From positions 666,756-730,755 of the forward strand of contig CAYRUS010000001.1 of NCBI GenBank assembly GCA_964427735.1: 64,000 nt of DNA. Reading direction: 5' to 3'. Positions 12,220 to 63,015 of this stretch are shown piece by piece. Under the pieces are notes generated by a model. The model worked only from the letters and a program-made list of their open reading frames with translations, was not told the DNA's origin and searched no databases. The translations under genes and the position numbers were made by a program. This stretch comes from an uncultured Gammaproteobacteria bacterium. GTDB taxonomy: Bacteria; Patescibacteriota; Microgenomatia; UBA8517. Numbering within the stretch: the first letter of the stretch is position 1; every line of letters begins with the position of its first letter.

Positions 12220-12292
12220 GGGCCGGTAACTCAGTGGTTAGAGTGCCAATCTTATAAGTTGGAAGTCGATGGTTCGAATCCATCCCGGCCCA
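12220..12292 (+). tRNA. tRNA-Ile, anticodon UAU (reads AUA)
   Basis: Hand-folded cloverleaf: acceptor GGGCCGG/CCGGCCC, D stem ACTC/GAGT, anticodon stem CCAAT/GTTGG with loop CTTATAA (TAT at 34-36), T stem GATGG/CCATC, discriminator A. 73 nt. Confidence 0.7.
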
Positions 12293-12376
12293 CTCAAATA
12301 CTTTTTAATTTACATTAATAAGTCGTGTAGGTGGCAACTAGTGACAGGAGAATATAGATAAGTACTTTGCTGAAAC

Positions 12377-14464: not shown

Positions 14465-14470
14465 ACTGTG

Positions 14471-14540
14471 TTGCGGGGCTAGGAGTCGAACCTAGTCTGG
14501 AAGATTATGAGCCTTCCGTGCAGCCGTACACTACCCCGCA
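14471..14540 (-). tRNA. tRNA with anticodon CAU (Met elongator / initiator / Ile-lysidine not distinguishable by eye); short D arm
   Basis: Minus-strand sequence TGCGGGGTAGTGTACGGCTGCACGGAAGGCTCATAATCTTCCAGACTAGGTTCGACTCCTAGCCCCGCAA. Acceptor TGCGGGG/CCCCGCA, anticodon loop CTCATAA identical to the E. coli initiator loop, T stem CTAGG/CCTAG. Confidence 0.6.
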
Positions 14541-14680: not shown

Positions 14681-14754
14681 GCCAGCGTAGCTCAGTTGGT
14701 TAGAGCGTGGGATTCATAAACCCAAGGTCGGAGGTTCGATCCCTCCCGCTGGCA
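14681..14754 (+). tRNA. tRNA with anticodon CAU (Met/fMet/Ile2 ambiguous); G1:C72 paired, GGG/CCC in anticodon stem with A31-A39 mismatch
   Basis: GCCAGCG-TA-GCTC-AGTTGGTTA-GAGC-G-TGGGA-TTCATAA-ACCCA-AGGTC-GGAGG-TTCGATC-CCTCC-CGCTGGC-A. 74 nt. Confidence 0.65.
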
Positions 14755-14885
14755 CATATTGTATTTGCTAATTAAAAATGTCTAACTTATAATATGCACA
14801 CATGATAACAGTTGCAAACTGGCATTACTTGAAATTCTCCTAACGGGGGCTAGTTTCCAGTGGCCAAAAGGCAATTTTTAACAGA

Positions 14886-49041: not shown

Positions 49042-49238
49042 TCATTAATTTGATGATACATAGTGATTGATTAATATTAGATGAAAGAGTTGAAAGAATT
49101 AGTTAAGTATGGAGTTGAGCTGTGGCTTGTAGACGCAGTTCGAAAATTTTATCTCAATTCAAATACACCTATTCAGCCAGCATATCAGCTTAGCTATTAG
49201 TGATTTCCATCATTGGTGATTAAAGTGCAGTTCCATAA

Positions 49239-49320
49239 TGGTGGTAAAAATACCAGAGACGCATGAGATAGCTCGTGCATGAGGTGTGGTGGTGCTTGCG
49301 GAGGTGGTATTTTTACCACC
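49239..49320. repeat. Inverted repeat pair TGGTGGTAAAAATACC (49239-49254) / GGTGGTATTTTTACCACC (49303-49320, itself a perfect hairpin), bracketed by direct repeats ATTTCCATCATTG at about 49204 and about 49338
   Basis: Read directly in the intergenic stretch between the yggT-like gene and the hsd island. Confidence 0.5.
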
Positions 49321-49376
49321 CATCCCTATACTAATCCATTTCCATCATTGATGAGCGAAATACACTCCAGGAAACC

Positions 49377-50246
49377 TTACAAGGTAGACTCGTATGAATC
49401 TTTTATCAGTGAGAATACATAATCGGTATCAGTGTCTGGCTCAAATCTAGCAAGTCCAAGGTAGCCCCACTCATTGCTGGTGATGTCTTTAACCAACTTC
49501 TTGCTATCATTTGGATAAGATCTATCTCTGAGCAACACCTTGATGTAATTTGTGTAAAATTCAAACCTCACAAAGCTTTTTGTGGTCTTGTAAGTAATTC
49601 CGCTTTTTTGAGCTGCTTTTTCCTCCACATCTGGCAACTGTAAAATTTGTTCTCTCAAGGTCTTATATTTCTTTTGCATCACATCGCTTGTTTTGTTCAT
49701 ATGGAATTCCAAACTATATTCAGTTGTATCAACCAAGTCAGCGACTTTTCTTGGTTTTAGTGTTGGCGGTGTATAGATGCTTTCCAAATGAAGAATATCA
49801 GGCTGATAATAGTGATAGGACAATAATTCTATGTTACTCTCTTGCTCAACTGCGCCTAAGATGTATCTTCCAAAACCTCTGGCGACTAGTACAACTCTTG
49901 GTAGCTCCCAGTTAACTTTGATTCCTTTACCTAGTCTATTTTCAACAAGTAGTTCAAAATGCTTCTTGTTCTTGATGAGCCAGTTGTAATAAAAGAGTCC
50001 TTGAGCAAGCACTTCTTCGTTTTCTTTCCATTTGTATTCCAATATAACTGGTGAGTTGTTCTCATCTAATCCAAGAGTGTCAATTCTGCCATCATGTATT
50101 GGATATTCTTTCTCAATAAACCTGATACCTAATAAGTCCTCAAGGTTTGCAGCAAAGAAATCTCTTAAAGAAAACTCATCGCCAAAGCCATCATCTTTGA
50201 TTGAGCATTTAATAACTTTATTATTATCTATCTTAAATATAGCCAT
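49377..50246 (-). CDS. PD-(D/E)xK nuclease-fold protein (NucS/DUF91-like N-terminal domain, DUF4268-like C-terminal half); last gene of the hsd operon
   Basis: D...ExK motif GRIDTLGLDENNSPVILEYKWKE. Probable start at the second Met (MAIFKI, 50246), overlapping the hsdR stop (50248-50250). Confidence 0.45.
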   Translation of the reverse strand: MAIFKIDNNKVIKCSIKDDGFGDEFSLRDFFAANLEDLLGIRFIEKEYPIHDGRIDTLGLDENNSPVILEYKWKENEEVLAQGLFYYNWLIKNKKHFELLVENRLGKGIKVNWELPRVVLVARGFGRYILGAVEQESNIELLSYHYYQPDILHLESIYTPPTLKPRKVADLVDTTEYSLEFHMNKTSDVMQKKYKTLREQILQLPDVEEKAAQKSGITYKTTKSFVRFEFYTNYIKVLLRDRSYPNDSKKLVKDITSNEWGYLGLARFEPDTDTDYVFSLIKDSYESTL

Positions 50247-50247
50247 T

Positions 50248-53200
50248 TTACTTTTCTCCAGTCCAATCTTTTGCCAATAATTCAGCTTGCTCAAGTACTA
50301 TTTTGGTTGCACTTTCTTGCTTGTCTGGTGGATATTTGTATTTTTTCAATAGTCGTTTGATATAGACTCTTAGTTTTGCCTGAACGCTTTCTTTAATAGT
50401 CCAGTCAATGGTGGTGTTCTTTCGAAGCATGTCCACCAGTTCTCGTGCCATTGCTTTGAGTGTCTCATCTCCAAGCTCGCGGACAGCACTTTCATTGTTT
50501 GCCAGTGCATCATAAAAAGCTACTTCTTCATCGCTAAGACCTAGATCGTGTCCTTTTTCTTTCTCCAGTTTTATTTTCTTGGCAAGTTCCAGAAGCTCTG
50601 CAATAACTTGTGCCGCCTCAATGGTTCTGTTTTGGTATTTTCGTATTGTCTCTTCAAGCATTTCAGCAAATGAGCGAGACTTTACCAGGTTTTGTTTGGT
50701 CATCGTTCGCAACTCATCATTTAGAAGTTTTTTCAATAGTTCTAGTGCAACATTTTTGTGCTCCATATTCTTAACTTCTGCCAAAAATTCTTCAGAGAAT
50801 ATAGAAATGTCAGGCGATTTGATACCAGCTGCAGAATAGATGTCGATAACCGCATCAGAAGTCACCGCAGAAGAAACAATCTGGCGTATTGCCAAGTCAT
50901 AATCATCGTCAGTTGGTCCACCTCCGTGAGGCTCCATCTTCAGAATAGCACCTCTAATAATTTGGAAGAATGCAACTTCATCACGAATCCTGATTGCTTC
51001 ATCGTGTGGTACAGCCAAAGAAAATGCCTTAGATAGCTCTGAAACCGCCTGTAGGAAGCGTTTTTTACCTTCATTGATGCCTAGCACAAAGTCAGTGGCT
51101 GCAGAGATGGTTTGAGTACGCTGGCCTGGTGTTCCATCAAAGTAATTCTGGTAGTCAAAACCATGAAATAGAGCCTTTACTACCTCATATTTCTCAAGCA
51201 TGACTGATACTGCTTGATCTTGTGGAATGGCCGTTTCCTGGCGGTCTGATTCTGAGTAATAAGAAAGTGCTTCCTTAAGCTCAGGTGCAATGCCAATATA
51301 GTCCACAATAAGTCCACCTTGCTTGTCTTTGTAGACTCGATTGACACGAGCAATAGCTTGCATCAGTCCATGGCCTTTCATTGGTTTATCAACATACATG
51401 GTGTGAAGTGAAGGTACATCAAAACCAGTCAGCCACATATCACGGACAATAACCAACTTCAGTTCATCGTCTGGATCTTTCATTCTTCTGGCTACTTCGT
51501 CCAGCATATGCTTTGGTCTTATATGAGGCTGGAAATTGAGTGGATCAGCAGCACTTCCAGTCATGACAACTTTTAAAAATCCTTTCTTGTCATCATCGCT
51601 ATGCCAATGAGGTCTTAATTTGATAAGTTCGTTATACAGCTCAACCGCAATTCTTCTGCTCATAGCTACTATCATGCCTTTGCCATCCATTACATCCAGA
51701 CGATTTTCAAAATGTTCTACCAAGTCTTTTGCCACCAGCGCAATTCTTTTCTCAGAACCAACCATAGCTTCAAGCCGCGCCCACTTGCTCTTGAGCTTTT
51801 CTTTTCGCTCTGTTTCTTCACCTTCTGTCAGCTCTTCAAATTCAGGATCAATCTTTGGCTGTTCCTCTTTCTTTAGCTCAATTCGTGCCAGCCTTGCTTC
51901 ATAATAGATCGGCACTGTAGCATGATCCTCAACAGCTCTAGTGACATCGTAGACATCCACATACTCGCCAAATACTGCTCTGGTGTTTCTATCAGTAAGT
52001 TCAACTGGAGTACCTGTAAAGCCAATAAATGAAGCGTTTGGCAGTGCATCGCGCATATGCTTGGCAAAGCCTGAAATAAATTCATATTGGCTTCTGTGAG
52101 CTTCATCCGCAATAACTACAATGTTTTTCCTGTCAGACAACATTGGATAAGACTCACTAGAGTTAACTGGCAAGAACTTCTGGATAGTGGTAAATATCAC
52201 ACCACCTGATGCGACCTTCAATAACTCCTGCAGTTCATGTCTGTCAGAAGCCTGTTTTGGTGTTTGCCGCAAGAGGTCAGCGCACTTGGAAAAAGTGCCA
52301 AATAACTGATTGTCCAAGTCATTTCTGTCAGTCAATACAACAAGAGTAGGATTGTTGAGCTCTTGGATCACTTTGCCTGCAAAAAATGTCATTGTCAGAC
52401 TCTTGCCAGATCCTTGCGTATGCCAGACTACACCGGCTCTTCTGTCTCCTTCTTCTTGTGTTGCCTTAATAGTACTTTCAACTGCTTTATTGGTGGCAAA
52501 GTATTGATGATATGCAGCAGCTTTTTTTATAGTCTTTTCTCCGTCAGTCTCAAAGACGATAAAGTTTGAGATAAGGTCTAAGAGTCTGTTCTTGTCGAAT
52601 ATACCTTTCAAGAGTACTTCCAGCTGTGGCAGAGCATTTGGTGCTAACTCTTCACCGTCTACTGTTCGCCACCTGGTAAACCATTCCAAATTGGCAGAGA
52701 GTGTGCCGACTCTGGCATCAGTTCCATCACTGATGATGGAAAGTTCGTTATAGGCAAAAAGTGTTGGAATGTCTTGCTTGTAAGTCTGGATTTGATTAAA
52801 GGCACCTTTGACGGTCGCTTTTTCATCTCCAGGATTTTTGAGTTCTATCACCACCAACGGTAAACCATTTACAAAGACGATAACATCAGGCCTTCTGTTG
52901 ATATTATTCTCAATGACAGTGAATTGATTGACCGCCACAAAGTCATTTTCAGAAGCGTTATTCAGGTCTACCAGTCTCACCTTATCACCAGCCACACTTC
53001 CATCACTTCTCATGTATTCCACATCCACGCCATCACGAAGGTATGAGTGAAATATCTTGTTGTTGAGTACCAAGCTTGGAGTAACAAATGCTACTTGCAA
53101 TGCTTTCTTGAAAGCTTCTTCTTTGGCATCGGCTGGAATATCAGGATTGAATTTCTCAATTGCTTTCCAAAGTCTTTCTTCCAGAACTACATCGGCATAC

Positions 53201-53328
53201 GACTTACGTTCTGGATTTTCTCCATCAGGAGGTGGTGCAATCTCAGGACCACCAACCACAGAATAACCAAGCTCCTCAAGCCATTCCAATGTTGCTAGTT
53301 CTAAATCTGTTTCTGTGTATTTAGTCAT
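50248..53328 (-). CDS. hsdR: Type I restriction enzyme R subunit (HsdR)
   Basis: N-terminal [22 protein letters not shown], Walker [14 protein letters not shown] box [12 protein letters not shown], helicase C-terminal motifs; about 1025 aa. ORF track start is 53352; the MTKY start at 53328 is more likely. Confidence 0.9.
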
Positions 53329-54490
53329 GATTAGCTTTCTTGATATCTTCAACTATAAAGGATGCTCTTTCATACAGTTCATCGTAAGTAACAATATCTA
53401 TATTTCTTGAGTCTCGCTGGAAAAGCTCGTACGTTCTTGCTTTAGTTCTTAGTTCCTCAGTATCTCCAGAGAATTGATTTGAATTTCCGATTATTAATAT
53501 GGTTTTAGGATCAACTGTCTGTTGCTTAATATGTTTACCTTCGTCATCAAAGTTTTTGCTTGCATTTGCCTCAGATTTAATTTGCCAACTAGCCTTTTGT
53601 TCTAGTATTTGTGAAACGGCATGGATTAAGTCTGATGATAAACACCAACTACCTGAACGGTTTTTGTCCTCTCCAAACAGTGGAGTGTTTGGTTTTTTAA
53701 GCTCTACTAATACAGTAAATCTATTACAGCTTAATAAAAAATCTCCAATCTCACCATCTTTTCCAGCAATATTTGTATTAGAAACATGTACCTCTTTTTG
53801 AAGTATTCCTAAAAATCGATAGTCTAGTCCGTATCCAAATATCCAAGGATTCTTTGTGAAAAAATGCTGCCATGCGATTTCTTCTCTTTTATCATTTAGT
53901 GACTCTTGTTCTTGATACTTCTCTAAATATCCGTCTTCATTTAATAATTTATAAAATACGTCAAGCTGATTTTTCCTATAACCGATGTTGGTTATATCAG
54001 TAGAGGTAACTAGTCCATTTTTTATCAATTCTTTTAAAAGCTTTTCACCTTCTTCAGTCGATAAAAGTGTAACTATCTTTTTTTTAGTTTCTTCGTTAAG
54101 AGTGAGAAAAGTTTCATCGGATAAGCCAATCCTTCTCTCGGAAATACTTTTTAGGTCCAGCTTTCTTAAAAAAGAAATAAAGCTCATCACCTTTTCGAAA
54201 GTAAACGATGAAAACGTAACTTTCTCATCAGTTTTTGTCCACTGACCTTTGGATAATCTGAATTTCTCTATAACTACTCTGTTGATGTCGTCTTTATCTT
54301 TTATGTAGCCAACAGTGACCTTTAGTTTTATTTGAGGTGATAGTTCAAATTCTTCTGTATCAGATGCATAAAAGTTAAGATACTTTCCATCACCACTACC
54401 AAAATTGCTCACGTACAATACATCAGTACTTGAGTTTCCTGCAATGTCTGCATCAGATGGTTCTGGTATTTTCCAATCGTCAAAGCTCAT
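53321..54490 (-). CDS. DUF4263 (Shedu SduA-like) PD-(D/E)xK nuclease-domain protein embedded between hsdS and hsdR
   Basis: C-terminal half [25 protein letters not shown]...[27 protein letters not shown]...[10 protein letters not shown]...[13 protein letters not shown] matches my recollection of the DUF4263/Shedu nuclease domain (D...ElK core). 389 aa, start 1 nt after the hsdS stop, stop overlapping the hsdR start. Confidence 0.45.
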
Positions 54491-54491
54491 A

Positions 54492-55772
54492 TTAATTCAC
54501 TCTTATCTTTCCACTCATAAGTCTTGGTAATAGCGAGTCTCTTAATGTCGTTAGAGTCATTATTTCGTGCATGTTTTCATCAATTTTTAATAGCAAGTGG
54601 CTTGCTGACTTTTCAAATAACTGTCTAACACTTGAATCTGGATACAACACATTAAGAATTTTTAATTCTGTTGGTCTAACTCGCTGCCTGGAACCTGTTG
54701 AGCCAGTTGATAAGCTCGAGAAGTATGTATAAAAAATGTTTTCACGAAACATAAAGTTGCTCCAAGTCCAGTCTTCTTTTTTTGGTACCACATTAATGAA
54801 TTCCGTTGAGCTTATAGATTTTTCATTCCACCTATCAGTAAAGATAGTCCAAATACGCTTTGCATTTTTTGGATTTAGTTTAGAAATGAGAATGCTATCC
54901 TGACTTATGTGCGTTTTATTGCTTTTTATCGTATTTCCTAGTTCTAGCATTGGTGAGTTATATTGGTCGAAAGAAGGAATGCTGAAATGCCAATAGTTTT
55001 GGTTTCCGTTCTTACTTGGATTAATTGATTTGGTGTTGATTTCAAATATTTGTTTGACCTTTTTAACCATCCATCCTTTTGGTATCTCGCCAAGTTCACT
55101 TTCCACCATCTCGCCGCCGCTGGATTTGTATGGCTCGCCATTTTCATTTGGAAATTCAAAATCCACAAACCACTGTTTGAATAGAGCTTTACCTATCTCC
55201 TCCAACGTCTTATTCATCCTGCGGTTTAATTCAATCTTGTCATCAAGTGAGGAGAGAATAGAAGCGATTTGTTTTTGCTCGTTTTCTGAAGGAAATGGAA
55301 TACGTGATCTTTCAAGAACATCTGGATTAAATGCTGGATATGTAGATGTAGTTGTATCAGCAATTGCTGACAAATAATTTGTGTATTCCTCTGTTGTGAG
55401 GTAATAGTACAGAAACCTTGGATTAACTTTTTTACTACTTACAACAGCGTATCCGGTAGATGCAATAAGATTAGGTTTTGTTTTAGAAACAAATGCAAAG
55501 TGCTTAAGATTTGGACGTACTGTTGATATTAAAATATCATTATCAGAAACAATCCGTTTTGCTCTGCTTGGTGCATCTTTCAAAGATAACTTTTGAGTTT
55601 CTAATATTTCGCCTTTAAGAGTGGATGATACATCTATATACTCAACCCACTCATACTTAAAATCCTTATTGACTGATGCTTCATTTACTTTTGCAACCTC
55701 TGACAACAAAGCAATATCCCAATCCTCAGGAATTTCACCAATTTCTGTTTGTTTGAATGTATTATTTGTCAT
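54492..55772 (-). CDS. hsdS: Type I restriction-modification specificity subunit (HsdS), two target-recognition domains
   Basis: Conserved central and C-terminal HsdS repeats (IPFPSENEQKQIASILSSLDDKIELNRRMNKTLEEIGKALFKQWFVDFEFP; ...LLLKIDENMHEIMTLTTLRDSLLPRLMSGKIRV) separated by two variable domains; 426 aa. Confidence 0.85.
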   Translation of the reverse strand: MTNNTFKQTEIGEIPEDWDIALLSEVAKVNEASVNKDFKYEWVEYIDVSSTLKGEILETQKLSLKDAPSRAKRIVSDNDILISTVRPNLKHFAFVSKTKPNLIASTGYAVVSSKKVNPRFLYYYLTTEEYTNYLSAIADTTTSTYPAFNPDVLERSRIPFPSENEQKQIASILSSLDDKIELNRRMNKTLEEIGKALFKQWFVDFEFPNENGEPYKSSGGEMVESELGEIPKGWMVKKVKQIFEINTKSINPSKNGNQNYWHFSIPSFDQYNSPMLELGNTIKSNKTHISQDSILISKLNPKNAKRIWTIFTDRWNEKSISSTEFINVVPKKEDWTWSNFMFRENIFYTYFSSLSTGSTGSRQRVRPTELKILNVLYPDSSVRQLFEKSASHLLLKIDENMHEIMTLTTLRDSLLPRLMSGKIRVN

Positions 55773-56403
55773 CTGTATTTTTGTTATCTCGTTTTTGTAT
55801 AGCAGCTTTTTTGCTTACAGGAATCTTGTCATAAATAGCATCAATTTCTTTTGGCTCGGTTATCATTTTTTCAGCTATAAAATTTACAAGTTTAAAAAGA
55901 GCTGATGCTGTTTCAATGTCATCCTTTATATCCAACTCTCCTGGATGTACTGACTCGTTACCAATAACACGAAGTGAGTCAAGCGACTGCTGAACTTTAG
56001 GAGGAAGTCCATTTTTCACTAGATTGGCGATATCAGTATTAAGATCTTTTCCTTTTTCACCAAGCTGAATACATAGCTTTTGAATTGCCAACCTAAGCAA
56101 AGCAGCTGATCCTCTTGGAGACCTTTGCAGAATAGAAACTGCTTCGTTATAGTCTTGAACAATATCATTGTTGAGGTCCTCATTAGGAGGCTCTATTCCT
56201 GAAAAATCTGGATATATCATCTTCTCTTCGTGCCAAATGGAGTACTGGCCACATCTTGCACAAAAACAAACTCGTGTATTTTCTAAAAAACCTCCATTTA
56301 CTGATTTAATGCCGTGCCAATTTTGATTTGAAAAAGCACTGCAGAAAGGACAGTTGAATCCTGACGCTTCAAATTCTGGTTGTGTAAATGGAATTTTTGT
56401 CAT
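55762..56403 (-). CDS. DUF4145-like protein with N-terminal Zn-ribbon (CPFC...CARC), embedded between hsdM and hsdS
   Basis: N-terminal CPFCSAF...CFCARCGQY Cys4 ribbon. C-terminal helical domain with [15 protein letters not shown]...[15 protein letters not shown] resembling the DUF4145 R..GN.aaH core often found in hsd operons. ATGA overlap with the hsdM stop. Confidence 0.5.
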
Positions 56404-57938
56404 AAATCGTAGCCAACTTTTTTTAAATTTTCTTTGATCTTTGCTTCCAGCTCTTTTGACTCTTTGAATTGTGCTGATAATTCGCTGGTGAGTTTTTCCA
56501 TTTTCTCCTCAAACACTTCGTCATCTTCCATCTCAAAATCTGTGCCAACATATCTGCCAGGAGTGAGGACATAGCTATTCTTTTCTACTTCTTCAATCTT
56601 GGCTGATTTGCAAAATCCTTTGACATCCTCGTAGTCGCCGTCTGGATTCCTCCAGTTGTGGTAGGTGTCTGCGATTTGTTTGAGTTCTTTATCTGATAAT
56701 TCACGATGGCGTCTGTCAACCATAGTGCCTAGCTTGCGAGCGTCAATAAAGAGAATCTCTTCATGTCTGTCTCGGAAGTTGTGGTCGTATCTGTCGCGAG
56801 ATACAAACCACAAAGAGGCTGGAATGCCTGTGGTGTAGAACAACTTGTCTGGCAGTGCCACTATGCAGTCAACCAAGCCTTTCTTTATGAGTTCTTCTCT
56901 GATCTTGCCTTCATTGGAAGTGTTGGAAGAAAGCGCACCATTTGCCATCACAAATCCAGCAATGCCGGTAGGTGATAGATGATGGATAAAGTGCTGAATC
57001 CAAGCATAGTTGGCATTGCCTGTTGGTGGAACGCCATATTTCCAGCGGACATCATCGCGGAGTCGCTCGCCACCCCAGTCACTGACATTGAATGGAGGAT
57101 TGGCCAGAATAAAATCCGCTTTCAAGTCTTTGTGAAGATCGTTGTGGAAACTGTCAGCATCGGATTCTCCAAGATTGCCTTCTATGCCGCGAATAGCCAG
57201 ATTCATCTTTGCAAGTCTCCAAGTAGCGGCGTTGCTTTCCTGTCCATATACTGAAATGTCGCCAACATTACCGCCATGCTCCTCAACAAACTTTTCACTT
57301 TGGACAAACATACCGCCACTGCCACAACAAGGATCGTAAACACGGCCTTTGTATGGCTCTATCATTTGCACCAGAAGCTTAACTACTGATGCTGGCGTGT
57401 AGTATTCACCACCTGCTTTGCCTTCTGCGCTGGCAAATCTGCCTATAAAATATTCATAGACACGACCTAAAATATCTTTTGATTTTGACTCTTTATCTCC
57501 AAGACCTAGTGAGCTGAATATATCGACAATTTCACCTAAGCGCTGTTTGTTAAGGTCTGGTCTGGCAAATCTTTTTGGAAGCACTCCTTTGAGCGTTGGA
57601 TTTTCTTTCTCAATAGCTATCATTGCATCATCAATGAGCTTGCCGATTTCTGGCTTTTTGGCGTTTTCCTTTAAGTAATTCCACCTGGCATTTTCCGGCA
57701 CCCAGAATACATTCCTTGCCTTGTAAGCATCTTTGTCCTCACACTCACCATCAAATGCTTCCGGATCGTTCTTGATGGTCTGATACGCTTCTTCGAATGA
57801 ATCTGAAATGTATTTGAGAAAGATAAGACCAAGCACAACATGCTTATATTCACCTGGATCTAAGTTGCCGCGAAGCTTGTCTGCGGCTGACCATAATTTT
57901 GTTTCAAAGCCTAGATTAGCTGATGTATTATTTGCCAT
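56400..57938 (-). CDS. hsdM: Type I restriction-modification N6-adenine DNA methyltransferase subunit (HsdM)
   Basis: SAM-binding motif [13 protein letters not shown], catalytic motif [15 protein letters not shown], HsdM N-terminal domain; 512 aa. Confidence 0.9.
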
Positions 57939-57963
57939 AATTTTCTAAATTCTCTTTTAATGC

Positions 57964-58173
57964 TTACTTCTTATTTCTTGACAAGTAAGCTTCAATATCA
58001 CTCTTTCGATAGCGCCTGTCACCAACACCTTTTCGCGTGCCTACACGAACAGCTTTCAGCGTGCCGTTGCGGTCCCACCTACGGAGAGTCTGAATATTTA
58101 CATTTAGTATTTTTGCTGCTTCCTGTAAGGAAATAAGCTCTTCAAGCTCTGCGTTCATATAAGTTATGTCCAA
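57964..58173 (-). CDS. Small helix-turn-helix DNA-binding protein (excisionase/MerR-like HTH)
   Basis: LQEAAKILNVNIQTLRRWDRNGTLKAVRVGTRKGVGDRRYRKSDIEAY, typical of Xis-family/MerR-type HTH; 69 aa. Immediately upstream of hsdM on the same strand. Confidence 0.55.
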   Translation of the reverse strand: MDITYMNAELEELISLQEAAKILNVNIQTLRRWDRNGTLKAVRVGTRKGVGDRRYRKSDIEAYLSRNKK

Positions 58174-58501
58174 TTGTACTAAATTGACTAGTAGAATACT
58201 AGATACTCAGGTAATTGATTAGTAAATGAAAAATAGATCTATGGTAATAATTTACCTATATAATTTATGAGTAATTTCCTTATAACAAAGACTTTCGTAA
58301 AAGTATTAGCCTTATTTGAACAGAGTACAAAGAGTATAAGCTGAGATTGCTTATTATCTCTGCATACATGTCAAAGCTATCTGTTAAATAAGCTGAGGTG
58401 TGTTCCAAGCACAGGCGCTTTATAAGAAGCGCCAAATAAATACTCATGAAATCTTAAAATGTAAAATACGGCCTGCCATCAGGTAGAATACGAATAAGAG
58501 A

Positions 58502-59281
58502 ATGAAAATAAAAGATAATTCTGATCTTCTGGAACTAAAGGTAAACATTGAATGCAAGAATGACATTGCTTATATGGATTGTGCTTTGCTTCTTGATAAG
58601 CCTGAGTTCTTAAGACTGCTGCCTGAATACAGAAAAAAGCATGGCATAGATGTGCTAGTGCCGTATACTAAGTTCTATGAATGGATTTCCACAAAGATGG
58701 ATGCTGACATCAAAGCAAAAGAAGATGACATCGAAAAAGGTATAACAGTCAACGATATAACAGAGCTGAACCTACCGTTTTTGGAGTTTGAAGAAGATGC
58801 AAAGTCACTCTGTAGACAATTCAAAAAGCCTGGATACTTTGTGCAGATAATTCAGTTTGCCATTGCTTGTGGTGTAGTTGGAGACATCAGCTATCAGCAT
58901 ACGCGAATTGAGGTAACTCCAACTGATCCACCGCCACCACCTGAAGAAACAGAACTACCAGAAGTAAGAATTGTTATCACTCCAATGACAACATTAAAGG
59001 ACGTACAGGAAGTCTTTGAAAAGAATGTGCCTGATATATTTGAATCTCATATGAAACTACTCAACTACTATTACAGAATGAAGAACCGCAAAGCTGGCAA
59101 CTTCAGGCGAGATCGAGAATGGTACTGGAAGAATTTAGAAGGTGAAGGATATACAGAGATTGCACTTTCAGAGGCATCACCATCAGAAAGGCTTGAGTAC
59201 AAAAAGAGTCGCAACAGATATTTGATTACTGAGTATCAAATGGTAAAACAGGCAATCCGCAGATACAAAAACCTCCTCTAG
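58502..59281 (+). CDS. Hypothetical protein (element-borne)
   Basis: 259 aa; poly-Pro stretch PTDPPPPPEE; no family recognised. Confidence 0.4.
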   Translation: MKIKDNSDLLELKVNIECKNDIAYMDCALLLDKPEFLRLLPEYRKKHGIDVLVPYTKFYEWISTKMDADIKAKEDDIEKGITVNDITELNLPFLEFEEDAKSLCRQFKKPGYFVQIIQFAIACGVVGDISYQHTRIEVTPTDPPPPPEETELPEVRIVITPMTTLKDVQEVFEKNVPDIFESHMKLLNYYYRMKNRKAGNFRRDREWYWKNLEGEGYTEIALSEASPSERLEYKKSRNRYLITEYQMVKQAIRRYKNLL

Positions 59282-59506: not shown

Positions 59507-60019
59507 ATGAAACGCAAAAACTTTACCATGATTCCAAATGCATTGCTAAGTGAATCTCAACTATCAGTTCCTGCAAGATATTTGCTTTGTGTACTGCACA
59601 AATATTCGTTTCAAAAGGATTATTGCTGGCCAGGACAAGAAACGTTAGGTAAGGATTTAGGATACTCAGCAAGGCATATAAGAAACCTATTAAATGAACT
59701 ATTAAAATCTGGAGTTGTTGTGTCCGAAAGATGTGGATGGAATCGCACAAATACTTACAAGTTGAGTAAGAATCTTCAGTCAACCAGAGTTGCCTCATCA
59801 AATGAGTCAAACGGCAAATCGTGCCAGAAACAGACTTCCGCTCATTTTGGAACTGTAATTCCAATCCATCAAGGAAATCCACTTCCAACTAAGAATACTT
59901 ATGGAAGTAGAAAAGAGAATAACGGAAGTTCAAAAGGACTAGAAAGTTTACGGCAAGCAATGGTTGATATAGGTCTTAAACCAAATAGCCAAATAAGGCT
60001 AGAAAAGGCTGACTTTTAG
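59507..60019 (+). CDS. Helix-turn-helix (HTH_36-type) protein, replication-initiator/regulator-like, element-borne
   Basis: N-terminal FTMIPNALLSESQLSVPARYLLCVLHKYSF...YCWPGQETLGKDLGYSARHIRNLLNELLKSGVV resembles the HTH_36 / replisome-organiser N-terminal domain common on plasmids and phages. Confidence 0.45.
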   Translation: MKRKNFTMIPNALLSESQLSVPARYLLCVLHKYSFQKDYCWPGQETLGKDLGYSARHIRNLLNELLKSGVVVSERCGWNRTNTYKLSKNLQSTRVASSNESNGKSCQKQTSAHFGTVIPIHQGNPLPTKNTYGSRKENNGSSKGLESLRQAMVDIGLKPNSQIRLEKADF

Positions 60020-60061: not shown

Positions 60062-61819
60062 ATGAACTTGATATACGCACAATATTCTAGAAAGTCATCT
60101 GAGTCAAAAGAGAAACAAGCTCTGTCAATTTTTGAGCAAAATGAGGAGTGCAAAAAGGCTGTTGTTCGAGACAATTTGAAAATCGCACATATCTTTGAGG
60201 AATCGAGATCTGCATACAAACCAAATAACAGGCCAGAGTTCACACAAATGATTGAACTGATAGAGGCCAAGAAAGTAAATGCTATCTTGACCTGGAAACC
60301 AGACCGACTATGCCGCAATCCAATGGAAGGCGGACACCTTCTCCAGTTGCTACAAGATGGAAAGTTACAGGAAATTCGATCGACAGATGGTGAAAAATAT
60401 ACACAGGATTCAGATCATCTTATTTTACAGATCCATTTTGGCATGGCTAACCAATATTCCAGAAACCTGAGTAAGAATGTCAAAAGAGGCAACCATTACA
60501 TATTCCACAATAAGAAAAAATGGATTGGACCAGCTAAGCCAGGATACATCAACTACTACGATGAGGCAGCCAAAGAAAAAAAGATAGGCGTGGACGAACT
60601 AAGATTTCCACTGATCCAAAATGCTATTAAGCTCATATTGTCCGGCACTCACACTCCTATGGAAGCTTTTGACGTGCTCAATAACAAATGGAAATTTAGG
60701 TCCAGAAAACGAGGTTCACTAGGTGGCAAACCACTAGCAAAGTCTGGTTGGTATCGGATTTTGACAGATAGTTATTACTATGGCTTAATGGTTCGCACTG
60801 AAGGAGAAGTGATTGGAACACACAAGCCAATGCTCACAGAAGATGAATTTGACACGCTACAGGTAATCTTAGGACGCAAAGGCAAGCCAAGAATGGCCAG
60901 GCATGAATTTGCATATAAACATGTGCTCAAATGTGGTGAATGTGGTGGTTCTGTTACTGCTGAAGAAAAAGTGCAGATAATCTGTTCATCTTGTAAATCC
61001 AAATTTCATAAAGGCAAAGTAACCAATGCTTGTCCGCACTGTAAAATGTTGATTGAGGAGATGAAAAAGCCAACAATTCTCAAATATGTGTACTACCACT
61101 GCACCAAGCGAGTCAATAAATCTTGTACTCAAGGAAGTGTAACAATAGAAAATCTTGAGAAGAGAATAAACGAAGAACTGGATAAGTTCGAATTGAGCGA
61201 AGAATTCCGCGACTGGTGCATTGACCACTTGAATGAACTCAATGAGAAAGAAGAAGTTGATATTAAAACTATCAAAGAAAACCTCGTAAATGAGATGAAT
61301 AAATGTGATAAAGCACTTGCGAAACTTACAAGGCTCAGAATTTCAAGAGAAAACGTCTCAAATAGTGCTGAAATGGAGAAATTCTATGATGATGAAGAGA
61401 AAAGACTGCTAAAAGAGCGCAAAGACATCATGAAGCAAATTGGTACAGTCGATAAGAAACAGGAGGAGTGGTATTTCCAGTCCAAGGAGACATTTAACTT
61501 TGCTTGCACTGCCAAATATCAGTTTGAGACTGGTGACGTTAGAACCAAGACGTATATTTTGTCAAAACTTGGTTCGAACCTAACAATTCTAGATCGAAGC
61601 CTCCAAATTTCAGGCGAAAGGCCATATTTCCTAATAGAGAAAGCAAAGAAGGAGATTCAAGAGGTTGTCCTGGCGTTAGAACCTGAAGAAAAGGCCATAA
61701 TATCAAGCAATTTGCTAGCTTATGAGCCTATCAGTACTATCTTGCTGCGGAGCAGGGATTCGAACCCCAAATTCCAGTTCCAAAGACTGGCGTGTTACCA
61801 TTACACCACTCCGCAATGA
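60062..61819 (+). CDS. Large serine recombinase (resolvase catalytic domain + recombinase domain + Zn-ribbon + coiled coil)
   Basis: N-terminal LIYAQYSRKSSESKEKQALSIFEQ (catalytic Ser region) and DRLCRN motif; central recombinase domain; CGECGGSV...CSSCKSK...CPHCKM zinc ribbon; C-terminal coiled coil. 585 aa. The last 25 codons read through the antisense of tRNA-Gln. Confidence 0.8.
   Translation: MNLIYAQYSRKSSESKEKQALSIFEQNEECKKAVVRDNLKIAHIFEESRSAYKPNNRPEFTQMIELIEAKKVNAILTWKPDRLCRNPMEGGHLLQLLQDGKLQEIRSTDGEKYTQDSDHLILQIHFGMANQYSRNLSKNVKRGNHYIFHNKKKWIGPAKPGYINYYDEAAKEKKIGVDELRFPLIQNAIKLILSGTHTPMEAFDVLNNKWKFRSRKRGSLGGKPLAKSGWYRILTDSYYYGLMVRTEGEVIGTHKPMLTEDEFDTLQVILGRKGKPRMARHEFAYKHVLKCGECGGSVTAEEKVQIICSSCKSKFHKGKVTNACPHCKMLIEEMKKPTILKYVYYHCTKRVNKSCTQGSVTIENLEKRINEELDKFELSEEFRDWCIDHLNELNEKEEVDIKTIKENLVNEMNKCDKALAKLTRLRISRENVSNSAEMEKFYDDEEKRLLKERKDIMKQIGTVDKKQEEWYFQSKETFNFACTAKYQFETGDVRTKTYILSKLGSNLTILDRSLQISGERPYFLIEKAKKEIQEVVLALEPEEKAIISSNLLAYEPISTILLRSRDSNPKFQFQRLACYHYTTPQ
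61745..61815 (-). tRNA. tRNA-Gln, anticodon UUG
   Basis: Minus strand TGCGGAG-TG-GTGT-AATGGTA-ACAC-G-CCAGT-CTTTGGA-ACTGG-AATT-TGGGG-TTCGAAT-CCCTG-CTCCGCA-G; U8 present; anticodon TTG. Confidence 0.7.
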
Positions 61820-62839: not shown

Positions 62840-62915
62840 GTGACTCCGGAAGGACTCGAACCTTCAACCATCAGCTTAAAAAGTCCGCCAGTTGGCGGAT
62901 CTGCCATTGAGACTT
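62840..62915 (-). other. Degenerate tRNA-Lys copy (pseudo-tRNA): exact 41-nt duplicate of the tRNA-Lys 3' half plus D-loop-like remnant, anticodon stem replaced by a CCGCCAACTGGCGG palindrome
   Basis: Plus strand TGACTCCGGAAGGACTCGAACCTTCAACCATCAGCTTAAAA occurs at 62840-62880 and again at 62944-62984. The upstream copy lacks a 5' acceptor strand able to pair with CGGAGTC. Confidence 0.6.
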
Positions 62916-62940: not shown

Positions 62941-63015
62941 TGGTGACTCCGGAAGGACTCGAACCTTCAACCATCAGCTTAAAAGGCTGTTGCTCTGCCA
63001 TTGAGCTACGGAGCC
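62941..63015 (-). tRNA. tRNA-Lys, anticodon UUU, CCA encoded
   Basis: Minus strand GGCTCCG-TA-GCTC-AATGGCA-GAGC-A-ACAGC-CTTTTAA-GCTGA-TGGTT-GAAGG-TTCGAGT-CCTTC-CGGAGTC-A-CCA. Confidence 0.7.

Follow-up and report, generated by a model that had tools for sequence, protein, structure and literature searches.

Do defence genes packed stop codon against start codon form one machine, or do they mark a restriction operon that holds separate defence genes in its seams? The question is raised by a locus in a 64,000-nucleotide stretch (positions 666,756 to 730,755 of contig CAYRUS010000001.1, assembly GCA_964427735.1; hereafter the window) from an uncultured bacterium that GTDB places in the Patescibacteriota (Microgenomatia; UBA8517). 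Seven consecutive open reading frames (ORFs) on its minus strand, at 49377-58173, encode, in order, an HTH_17 protein, HsdM, a RAZR/PD-T7-4 homologue, HsdS, the Shedu nuclease SduA, HsdR and a PDC-S18 family protein. An earlier note on this DNA had described six of them as a composite defence operon of a configuration not reported before. We consider it likely that the seven genes form an operon carried on an acquired island of ~12.7 kb (49.1-61.8 kb), in which a type I restriction-modification (R-M) scaffold holds exchangeable single-gene cassettes whose products would act as separate layers of defence.

The type I scaffold and its embedded genes

The genes of the unit, from first to last, are as follows.

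57964-58173, minus strand: HTH_17/excisionase-MerR-like DNA-binding protein, 69 residues; first gene of the unit.
56400-57938, minus strand: hsdM, type I N6-methyladenine (m6A) DNA methyltransferase subunit, 512 residues (Pfam, PADLOC and NCBIfam profiles).
55762-56403, minus strand: RAZR/PD-T7-4 homologue, 213 residues, in slot A between hsdM and hsdS (PADLOC, Pfam).
54492-55772, minus strand: hsdS, specificity subunit with two target-recognition domains (TRDs), 426 residues (PADLOC, Pfam).
53321-54490, minus strand: Shedu nuclease SduA, 389 residues, in slot B between hsdS and hsdR (Pfam, PADLOC).
50248-53328, minus strand: hsdR, type I restriction subunit, 1026 residues (Pfam, NCBIfam, PADLOC).
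49377-50246, minus strand: PDC-S18 family protein, 289 residues; tail gene, starting 1 nucleotide after the hsdR stop codon.

Direct reading of the sequence shows hsdM and RAZR overlapping by ATGA (56400-56403), RAZR and hsdS by 11 nucleotides (ATGACAAATAA, 55762-55772) and sduA and hsdR by 8 nucleotides (ATGACTAA, 53321-53328), while hsdS and sduA are separated by the single nucleotide at 54491. The earlier note had given these four junctions, and the ORF coordinates, in the same way. At the fifth junction, between hsdR and the last ORF, it had placed a stop/start overlap (50246-50250); the sequence there is TAAAATG, that is TAA-A-ATG, with the stop at 50250-50248, the ATG at 50246-50244 and a 1-nucleotide gap. 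It also omitted the HTH_17 gene, which lies within the range it described, 25 nucleotides upstream of hsdM. All five internal junctions have gaps of no more than 1 nucleotide. Among the remaining same-strand neighbours of the window this holds for 4 of 34 pairs (Fisher p = 2e-4), with a median gap of 57.5 nucleotides, so the operon is packed more tightly than the genome background. The junctions are compatible with co-translation of the hsd and accessory genes.

Judged by its profiles and motifs, hsdM-hsdS-hsdR is a canonical type I R-M system, as the earlier note had recognized. HsdM matches Pfam N6_Mtase (1.4e-110) and HsdM_N (1.6e-28) and PADLOC MTase_I (9.4e-235), and contains the catalytic NPPF and the S-adenosylmethionine motif DPCCGSGG. 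HsdS matches PADLOC Specificity_I over residues 23-425 (3.9e-82), with Pfam Methylase_S (3.4e-20) on TRD1 only. HsdR combines an N-terminal PD-(D/E)xK nuclease, a superfamily 2 translocase and a HindI-like C-terminal domain (Pfam HSDR_N 4.7e-50, SWI2_SNF2 3.8e-83 and T1RH-like_C 2.6e-133; TIGR00348 hsdR 3.1e-196; PADLOC REase_I score 1173.9), and carries QGSGKS (Walker A), DEAH and D...ELK. The motifs quoted in the earlier note, and the Cys4 ribbon described next, were all found in the ORF translations.

The ORF between hsdM and hsdS had been read as a Cys4 ribbon paired with a DUF4145-like helical domain. Pfam and invariant cysteines agree with this, and the identity can be sharpened: the protein matches PADLOC PD-T7-4 over its full length (1.5e-85) and consists of an N-terminal Cys4 zinc ribbon and a C-terminal DUF4145 HEPN RNase domain (Pfam DUF4145 3.2e-17, 62.8 bits vs a cut-off of 23.1). 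PD-T7-4 (Vassallo 2022) has since been renamed RAZR, a HEPN RNase (Nature 2026, PMC13017515). The E. coli protein, which has the same length and architecture as ours, encircles the portal or recombinase rings of phages as a 24-mer and cleaves single-stranded RNA non-specifically, and this RNA cleavage aborts infection; its residues R146 and H154 are essential (PMC13017515). They correspond to R145 and H153 in the window, which, together with C18, C21, C48 and C51, are invariant across 15 homologues. Because of the PD-T7-4/RAZR match and the retention of these residues, we take the helical domain of the earlier note to be a putative RNase, and neither structural nor a third nuclease directed at DNA. 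E. coli RAZR was studied as a stand-alone gene, whereas the window copy and several copies from the candidate phyla radiation fill the hsdM/hsdS slot with overlapping stop and start codons.

The earlier assignment of the ORF between hsdS and hsdR to DUF4263/Shedu is borne out over the full length of the protein, by Pfam SduA_C (2.5e-28, 99.7 bits vs a gathering cut-off of 27) and PADLOC SduA (PDLC00392, 3.8e-141, residues 8-385). An N-terminal domain (~1-175) precedes the DUF4263 PD-(D/E)xK nuclease domain, and the match to B. cereus SduA (8ti8, 9e-16) covers the nuclease domain only. E204, D250, E263, K265 and Q294, which make up motifs I-IV, are invariant in 17 homologues and correspond to E204, D249, E264, K266 and Q295 of the B. 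cereus protein. The nuclease domain and its five active-site residues are common to this protein and to the Shedu proteins of B. cereus and E. coli (Gu et al. 2023; Loeff et al. 2023). Characterized Shedu proteins are described as sensing DNA ends.

The tail gene product matches the PADLOC profiles for PDC-S18 over its full length, PDLC04946 at 4.7e-63 (residues 2-287) and PDLC04945 at 1.6e-46. It is composed of a NucS-like PD-(D/E)xK nuclease (residues 1-160), a disordered linker and a DUF5655/YdhG-YjbR-like domain (178-289), and E47, D56, E70, K72 and Q82 are invariant among homologues. The AlphaFold model, built with 40 homologues, is confident, with a predicted local distance difference test (pLDDT) score of 89.1. 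The earlier note had called this ORF a NucS/PD-(D/E)xK nuclease; the nuclease core and the NucS-like fold stand, but the NucS family thresholds are not reached. In Pfam, DUF5655 scores narrowly above threshold and NucS_C below it (23.4 vs 24, covering 38 residues). A NucS orthologue was rejected on this sub-threshold score and on NCBIfam NucS, with 23.2 bits vs a cut-off of 216. What the protein shares with NucS/EndoMS is the nuclease fold only; it does not have the NucS N-terminal domain and carries the DUF5655/YdhG-like domain at its C-terminus. At E<=1e-30, 233 of 1.84 billion cluster representatives belong to the family. A PDB sequence search with the protein gave no match, and PDC-S18 is not mentioned in the literature searched. 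It originates as a candidate from a guilt-by-embedding screen, chosen after mobilome-associated proteins had been excluded (Payne et al. 2024).

These assignments bear on a simpler explanation, that the accessory ORFs are lineage-typical HsdR or HsdS fragments, decayed domains or chance ORFs, so that the unit would be merely a type I R-M operon. Nothing was found in its favour, and the Pfam and PADLOC matches refute it: each accessory ORF is covered from end to end by the profile of its own family and keeps the catalytic residues. Full-length homologues of each number in the hundreds to thousands, and none of the ORFs resembles the Hsd subunits. We regard this explanation as almost certainly wrong.

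The first gene encodes a protein that matches Pfam HTH_17 (1.6e-12), the NCBIfam 'excise' domain (1e-8) and PADLOC mad1 (4.7e-12). It is probably a regulator of the cargo operon or a recombination directionality factor.

Relatives with the same scaffold and other cassettes

The nearest relatives are Patescibacteria (Shapirobacteria, Pacebacteria, Daviesbacteria). Patescibacterial loci, with percentages relative to the window proteins, compare as follows.

Window: hsdM-RAZR-hsdS-sduA-hsdR-PDC-S18.
L087 (HsdM 89%, HsdR 83%): hsdM-RAZR (86%)-hsdS-PIN_12-hsdR.
L002, Shapirobacteria (HsdM 82%, HsdR 84%): hsdM-106-residue ORF-hsdS-sduA (74%)-hsdR-GmrSD_N/HEPN gene (838 residues).
L088, Daviesbacteria (HsdM 51%, HsdR 43%): hsdM-RAZR-hsdS-DUF4145-hsdR.
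L090, Moraniibacteriota (HsdM 60%, HsdR 53%): hsdM-RAZR-140-residue ORF-hsdS-Abi_C-323-residue ORF-hsdR; four embedded genes.

With blastn, homology to L087 runs from 57938 to 55722, breaks over sduA and resumes at 53331-50257, while homology to L002 runs from 57945 to 56400, breaks over RAZR and resumes at 54542-50244. The breakpoints lie at gene boundaries, and therefore the cassettes differ gene by gene, with junctions that are equally seamless in each locus. The HsdS alignments to L087 and L002 are confined to the central and C-terminal conserved regions, and the TRDs differ. At the tail, L180, a close relative from another sample, has an hsdR (97.6%) followed after 1 nucleotide by PDC-S18 (93%), with a different gene downstream. 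The six-gene order was not found in a second species; the matches were the same organism (L001) and the hsdR-PDC-S18 fragment of L180. GC content at third codon positions (GC3) also separates scaffold from cassettes in three of the loci: in the window, L002 and L090 it is 0.35-0.47 for hsdM and hsdR vs 0.17-0.32 for the embedded genes, whereas L087 and L088 are uniform. This suggests, from composition, that scaffold and cassettes have had separate histories.

The embedded families were also found outside this scaffold. RAZR occurs solo in an Armatimonadetes defence island (L089) and on plasmids; in the plasmid collection the homologues are at most 49% identical and solo, and two records inspected showed no type I context. 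In the SduA subfamily (80 loci), hsdS accounts for 12 of 55 immediate upstream neighbours and HSDR_N is found in 5 of 54 downstream, the others being diverse. Relatives of PDC-S18 come after a type III mod-res pair and one unknown gene in L082, after an MmeI-like enzyme in L085/86 and after a prokaryotic Argonaute (pAgo)-DpnII/MboI-like pair in L083/84, and one lies upstream of SduA (L012). Across 80 metagenome loci, R-M genes are enriched among the close neighbours: the downstream genes include HSDR_N_2 plus MmeI/N6 methyltransferase (7/34), N6_N4_Mtase (5) and Methylase_S (2), and RadC is upstream in 8 of 29; members of a clade at 45-49% identity have RadC before them and a type IIG-like enzyme after them. 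Since these neighbours range over R-M types, PDC-S18 is linked to R-M, yet it is neither bound to type I nor always last. The first contexts had suggested a gene that always comes last after a restriction system; this was rejected on finding a close downstream same-strand gene in 30 of 53 loci.

Three further sets of PDC-S18 relatives were recorded. In L122-L136 (e.g. L126, 2119-6778) RadC (JAB), a PDC-S18-like protein of the 45-49% clade and a large, type IIG-like HSDR_N_2 plus MmeI/N6 methyltransferase enzyme form, in this order, a conserved module of three genes with gaps of 4-6 nucleotides and overlaps of 4 nucleotides. In the Daviesbacteria loci L083/L084 (5720-9873) a Piwi-domain Argonaute, a DpnII/MboI-like protein and PDC-S18 form an operon that adjoins a LexA-like repressor and a Dam-type methyltransferase, and the element shares the backbone genes orf259 and DUF5659. 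Six viral contigs from IMG/VR (L171-L176) carry distant relatives (32-48% identity), several consisting of the nuclease domain only.

Taken together with the gene identities, the slot variability points to a scaffold that would offer two internal slots (hsdM/hsdS and hsdS/hsdR) and a tail position to exchangeable single-gene defence cassettes, the present combination having arisen by cassette exchange or recombination within the conserved scaffold. The genes would be transcribed jointly from the divergent region at 58.2-58.5 kb, with the abutting or overlapping start and stop codons permitting coupled translation. The products would then act separately, as four layers that are each self-sufficient. 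The type I R-M system would cut incoming unmethylated DNA. The SduA nuclease would be gated by its N-terminal domain on an infection cue, which in the characterized homologues is free DNA ends. RAZR would be a latent HEPN RNase which, if it behaves as in E. coli, would assemble on phage portal or recombinase rings, cleave RNA and abort infection, and PDC-S18 would be a candidate NucS-fold nuclease with a YdhG/YjbR-like domain. Nesting may couple the inheritance and expression of the layers. Because RAZR and the SduA subfamily also occur alone, functional interdependence of the layers is not indicated.

Interdependence is what a different explanation requires. Here the six genes would be one machine similar to PrrC/EcoprrI, in which one or more of the embedded effectors (RAZR, SduA, PDC-S18) bind the type I complex or are held latent by it and fire when a phage anti-restriction protein disables it or, alternatively, act on DNA ends made by HsdR. 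The seamless, co-oriented junctions would fit such a machine, as would the recurrence of the hsdM-RAZR-hsdS order in four patescibacterial loci and the strong tie of PDC-S18 relatives to R-M genes of types I, IIG/L and III. There is also precedent in PrrC, which is inactive under EcoprrI until T4 Stp acts, and type I cleavage would generate the DNA ends that characterized Shedu proteins are described as sensing. However, E. coli RAZR cloned by itself protects, its direct trigger being the ring proteins of the phage (PMC13017515), RAZR homologues are found without any R-M system, and the SduA subfamily lies mostly outside type I loci. Furthermore, near-identical scaffolds carry unrelated cassettes (PIN, Abi_C, DUF4145, GmrSD-like), which is hard to square with specific co-adaptation, and the partners of PDC-S18 are mechanistically diverse. 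An effector of the PrrC type is expected almost exclusively with type I R-M; relatives of RAZR, SduA and PDC-S18 all occur outside it. We therefore consider such a machine unlikely, and favour separate layers in a shared scaffold.

The biological sense of embedding is itself debated, with linked inheritance, co-regulation and true synergy all proposed (Payne et al. 2024). It is improbable, in our estimate, that the patescibacterial type I scaffold is a defined cassette-exchange platform whose occupants cooperate with restriction. If it were, Shedu and PDC-S18 might process the DNA ends made by HsdR while RAZR backs up failed restriction, and PDC-S18 would be a general accessory of DNA-cleaving defence (types I, IIG/L, III and pAgo) rather than a stand-alone system. 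The window, L087 and L002 form a natural series in which the same scaffold carries different cassettes, and are suited to comparing combinations. PDC-S18 itself gains a confident predicted structural model and a consistent link to several restriction types.

The probable island, its composition and its borders

Beyond the operon, the island and its borders contain the following features.

49042-49376, strandless: non-coding left (distal) end of the island, with a perfect 16-nucleotide inverted repeat and flanking 17-nucleotide direct repeats.
58174-58501, strandless: stretch separating the operon from the divergently oriented backbone genes; presumed promoter region.
58502-59281, plus strand: backbone gene orf259, 259 residues, with no Pfam, NCBIfam or PADLOC match.
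59507-60019, plus strand: HTH_36 DNA-binding protein of the island backbone, 170 residues (Pfam HTH_36 4e-9).
60062-61819, plus strand: large serine recombinase, 585 residues (Pfam Resolvase 3.5e-19, NCBIfam XisF-like 3.7e-17).
61744-61815, minus strand: tRNA-Gln(UUG) (ARAGORN; Rfam tRNA, 64.5 bits).

We compared GC3 with a background of 45 genes (0.251+-0.029). Values are high for hsdM (0.415), the recombinase (0.408), HTH_17 (0.400), orf259 (0.377), PDC-S18 (0.369) and hsdR (0.363), and lower for hsdS (0.302), the neighbouring YggT gene (0.266), sduA (0.264) and RAZR (0.248). The non-coding stretch at 49042-49376 marks a switch from 0.369 in the PDC-S18 gene to 0.266 in the YggT gene. From this pattern we conclude that ~49.1-61.8 kb is probably a foreign island, and that the operon is compositionally mosaic. 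The earlier impression of a stretch more GC-rich than its flanks accordingly holds for the hsdM and hsdR windows (0.41-0.43 vs about 0.33-0.37) but not for sduA, hsdS and RAZR (0.34-0.36). Its suggestion of recent acquisition agrees with the foreign GC3, the adjacent serine recombinase and the tRNA-Gln gene.

The serine recombinase is presumed to be the integrase of the island. Zn_ribbon_recom is weak in it and PF07508 was not detected; related recombinases adjoin SduA or PDC-S18 loci in L004, L009, L010, L015 and L082. Its last ~25 codons run antisense across the entire tRNA-Gln gene, with the stop codon 2 nucleotides beyond the tRNA. The overlap hints at an integration event at the tRNA gene, or inside it, in which the tRNA was reconstituted, and tRNA-Gln is the probable integration target of the island. 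At the other end, the inverted repeat GGTGGTAAAAATACCA (49240-49255 and 49305-49320) encloses a 49-nucleotide loop and is bracketed by 17-nucleotide direct repeats, ATTTCCATCATTGGTGA at 49203 and ATTTCCATCATTGATGA at 49338. The fold of 49240-49320 is no better than that of shuffled sequences (z-score -1.77) and matches no Rfam family. The segment 49042-49376 is probably the island border, and could be a remnant of an attachment (att) site. The ~760-kb genome would in this case devote about 8.8 kb to a four-layer defence operon on a mobile island.

The same island context raises another explanation, in which PDC-S18, and possibly HTH_17, belong to the machinery of the mobile element and serve its maintenance, transfer or addiction rather than defence, standing as 'bookends' of the cargo in a family of patescibacterial elements with serine recombinases. 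The comparison with L082 speaks for it. HTH_17 (51% at the amino acid level) and PDC-S18 (77% amino acid, 75% nucleotide) are the only operon parts common to that locus, where they flank a type III R-M system on a serine-recombinase element; the HTH_17 homologue lies directly upstream of the mod-res operon, with DNA homology over 58041-57928. An orf259 homologue, 32% identical, occurs in L083/L084 beside the pAgo-DpnII/MboI-like-PDC-S18 cargo, and the GC3 of PDC-S18 (0.369) is like that of the island backbone and unlike that of the embedded cassettes. RadC, a gene common on mobile elements, precedes the PDC-S18 relatives of the distant clade. On the other hand, PDC-S18 was selected by the authors of PADLOC after removal of mobilome-associated proteins (Payne et al. 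2024), and it always shares the orientation of the restriction gene before it, to which it is almost fused (gaps of 1-32 nucleotides). Many relatives lie directly upstream of type IIG/methyltransferase genes with a 4-nucleotide overlap and no recombinase in view, and L180 retains hsdR-PDC-S18 with a different downstream gene. We give a role in the element itself only a slim chance, and continue to read PDC-S18 as the last cassette of the defence operon.

Several observations weigh against an acquired island of separately acting layers. The independence of the layers would follow from the solo occurrence of homologues, and PDC-S18 is a candidate anti-phage gene. The N-terminal ~175 residues of SduA have no detectable similarity to the solved Shedu sensor domains, and the AlphaFold2 model from the 17-sequence alignment (pLDDT 61) is too poor for a fold search. 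A scan of 48.6-60.1 kb for consensus sigma-70 promoters and terminators found fewer promoter-like sites than in shuffled sequences, and terminator-like sites were no commoner than expected by chance; the scan says nothing either way about a single transcript. A search for att-type direct repeats joining both ends of the island found only short repeats at chance level. Lastly, the host-like GC3 of sduA and RAZR implies that the island was not one uniform arrival, or that these genes are under differing codon constraints.

Some features of the relatives and of the wider window were noted along the way. A ~250-residue PDDEXK_1 (Cas4/RecB-like) gene lies downstream of patescibacterial R-M or PDC-S18 loci (L082 9873-10634; L107 710-1474; L088 16069-16636; L087 12892-13300; L006 5176-6000; L002 10270-10755), and the copies are 47-81% identical to that of L082. 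In several relatives the gene comes after PDC-S18 or hsdR, and no trace of a remnant was found in the window; the gene may mark a common integration neighbourhood or be a further accessory. The 3' half of tRNA-Lys(UUU), from the anticodon loop to the 3' end, is present as an exact 42-nucleotide copy (62840-62881 and 62943-62984), 103 nucleotides from the intact gene and preceded by degenerate D-arm-like sequence. The copy may be a pseudo-tRNA, or the att scar left by an element that once integrated at tRNA-Lys. A tRNA-Ile gene with anticodon UAU (tat) lies at 12220-12293, near tRNA-Met(CAU)-type genes at 14470-14540 (minus strand) and 14681-14755 (plus strand). Such a tRNA-Ile(UAU) is uncommon in bacteria, in which AUA is usually decoded by a lysidine-modified CAU tRNA.

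Comparison with known defence operons

The earlier note had taken a coupled operon with three extra modules to be a configuration not yet described. Embedding in type I R-M operons is in fact documented, also for several co-oriented genes together (Payne et al. 2024; Gu et al. 2023; Anantharaman et al. 2013), and the slots hold other cassettes both in close relatives (L087, L002) and in more distant ones (L088, L090). For BREX, DISARM and type I R-M systems, Payne et al. (2024; bioRxiv 10.1101/2024.01.29.577857) counted 17,432 non-redundant embedded genes that make up 3,568 combinations of cassettes; 96.7% of these genes point the same way as the system around them. In the case of Shedu, 602 of 5,499 genes lie within R-M systems (Gu et al. 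2023), and DUF4145 HEPN proteins with zinc ribbons have been listed as 'in operon with R-M' (Anantharaman et al. 2013). For Patescibacteria, too, a genomic island with a type I R-M system has been published. The combination of RAZR, Shedu and PDC-S18 in Patescibacteria was not found in the texts searched, a search that extended to the text of Payne et al. (2024) and not to its supplementary tables.

The closest parallel is the 'guilt-by-embedding' set of Payne et al. (2024), which covers type I R-M, BREX, DISARM and Hma and shows the same co-oriented nesting between or after hsd genes. Beyond what those cases show, the window and its close relatives reveal an exchange that proceeds slot by slot, the breakpoints lying at the boundaries of genes. 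EcoprrI-PrrC likewise places an RNA-cleaving abortive-infection effector inside a type I R-M operon. However, PrrC is an anticodon nuclease of the ABC-ATPase type that is silenced by the R-M complex and freed by T4 Stp, whereas RAZR is a zinc-ribbon/HEPN RNase that, in E. coli, is activated by phage rings and works without R-M (PMC13017515). In V. cholerae, the GmrSD-like TgvAB of VPI-2 has been verified by experiment as an additional restriction activity that lies within a type I R-M cluster on a mobile island, and the GmrSD_N/HEPN gene at the tail of the Shapirobacteria locus L002 recalls it. TgvAB is a two-gene type IV system, in contrast to the three single-gene cassettes of the window, which are different genes. 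The locus leaves current concepts unchanged: it is a clean example of the described nesting of defence genes in R-M operons, not a new system.

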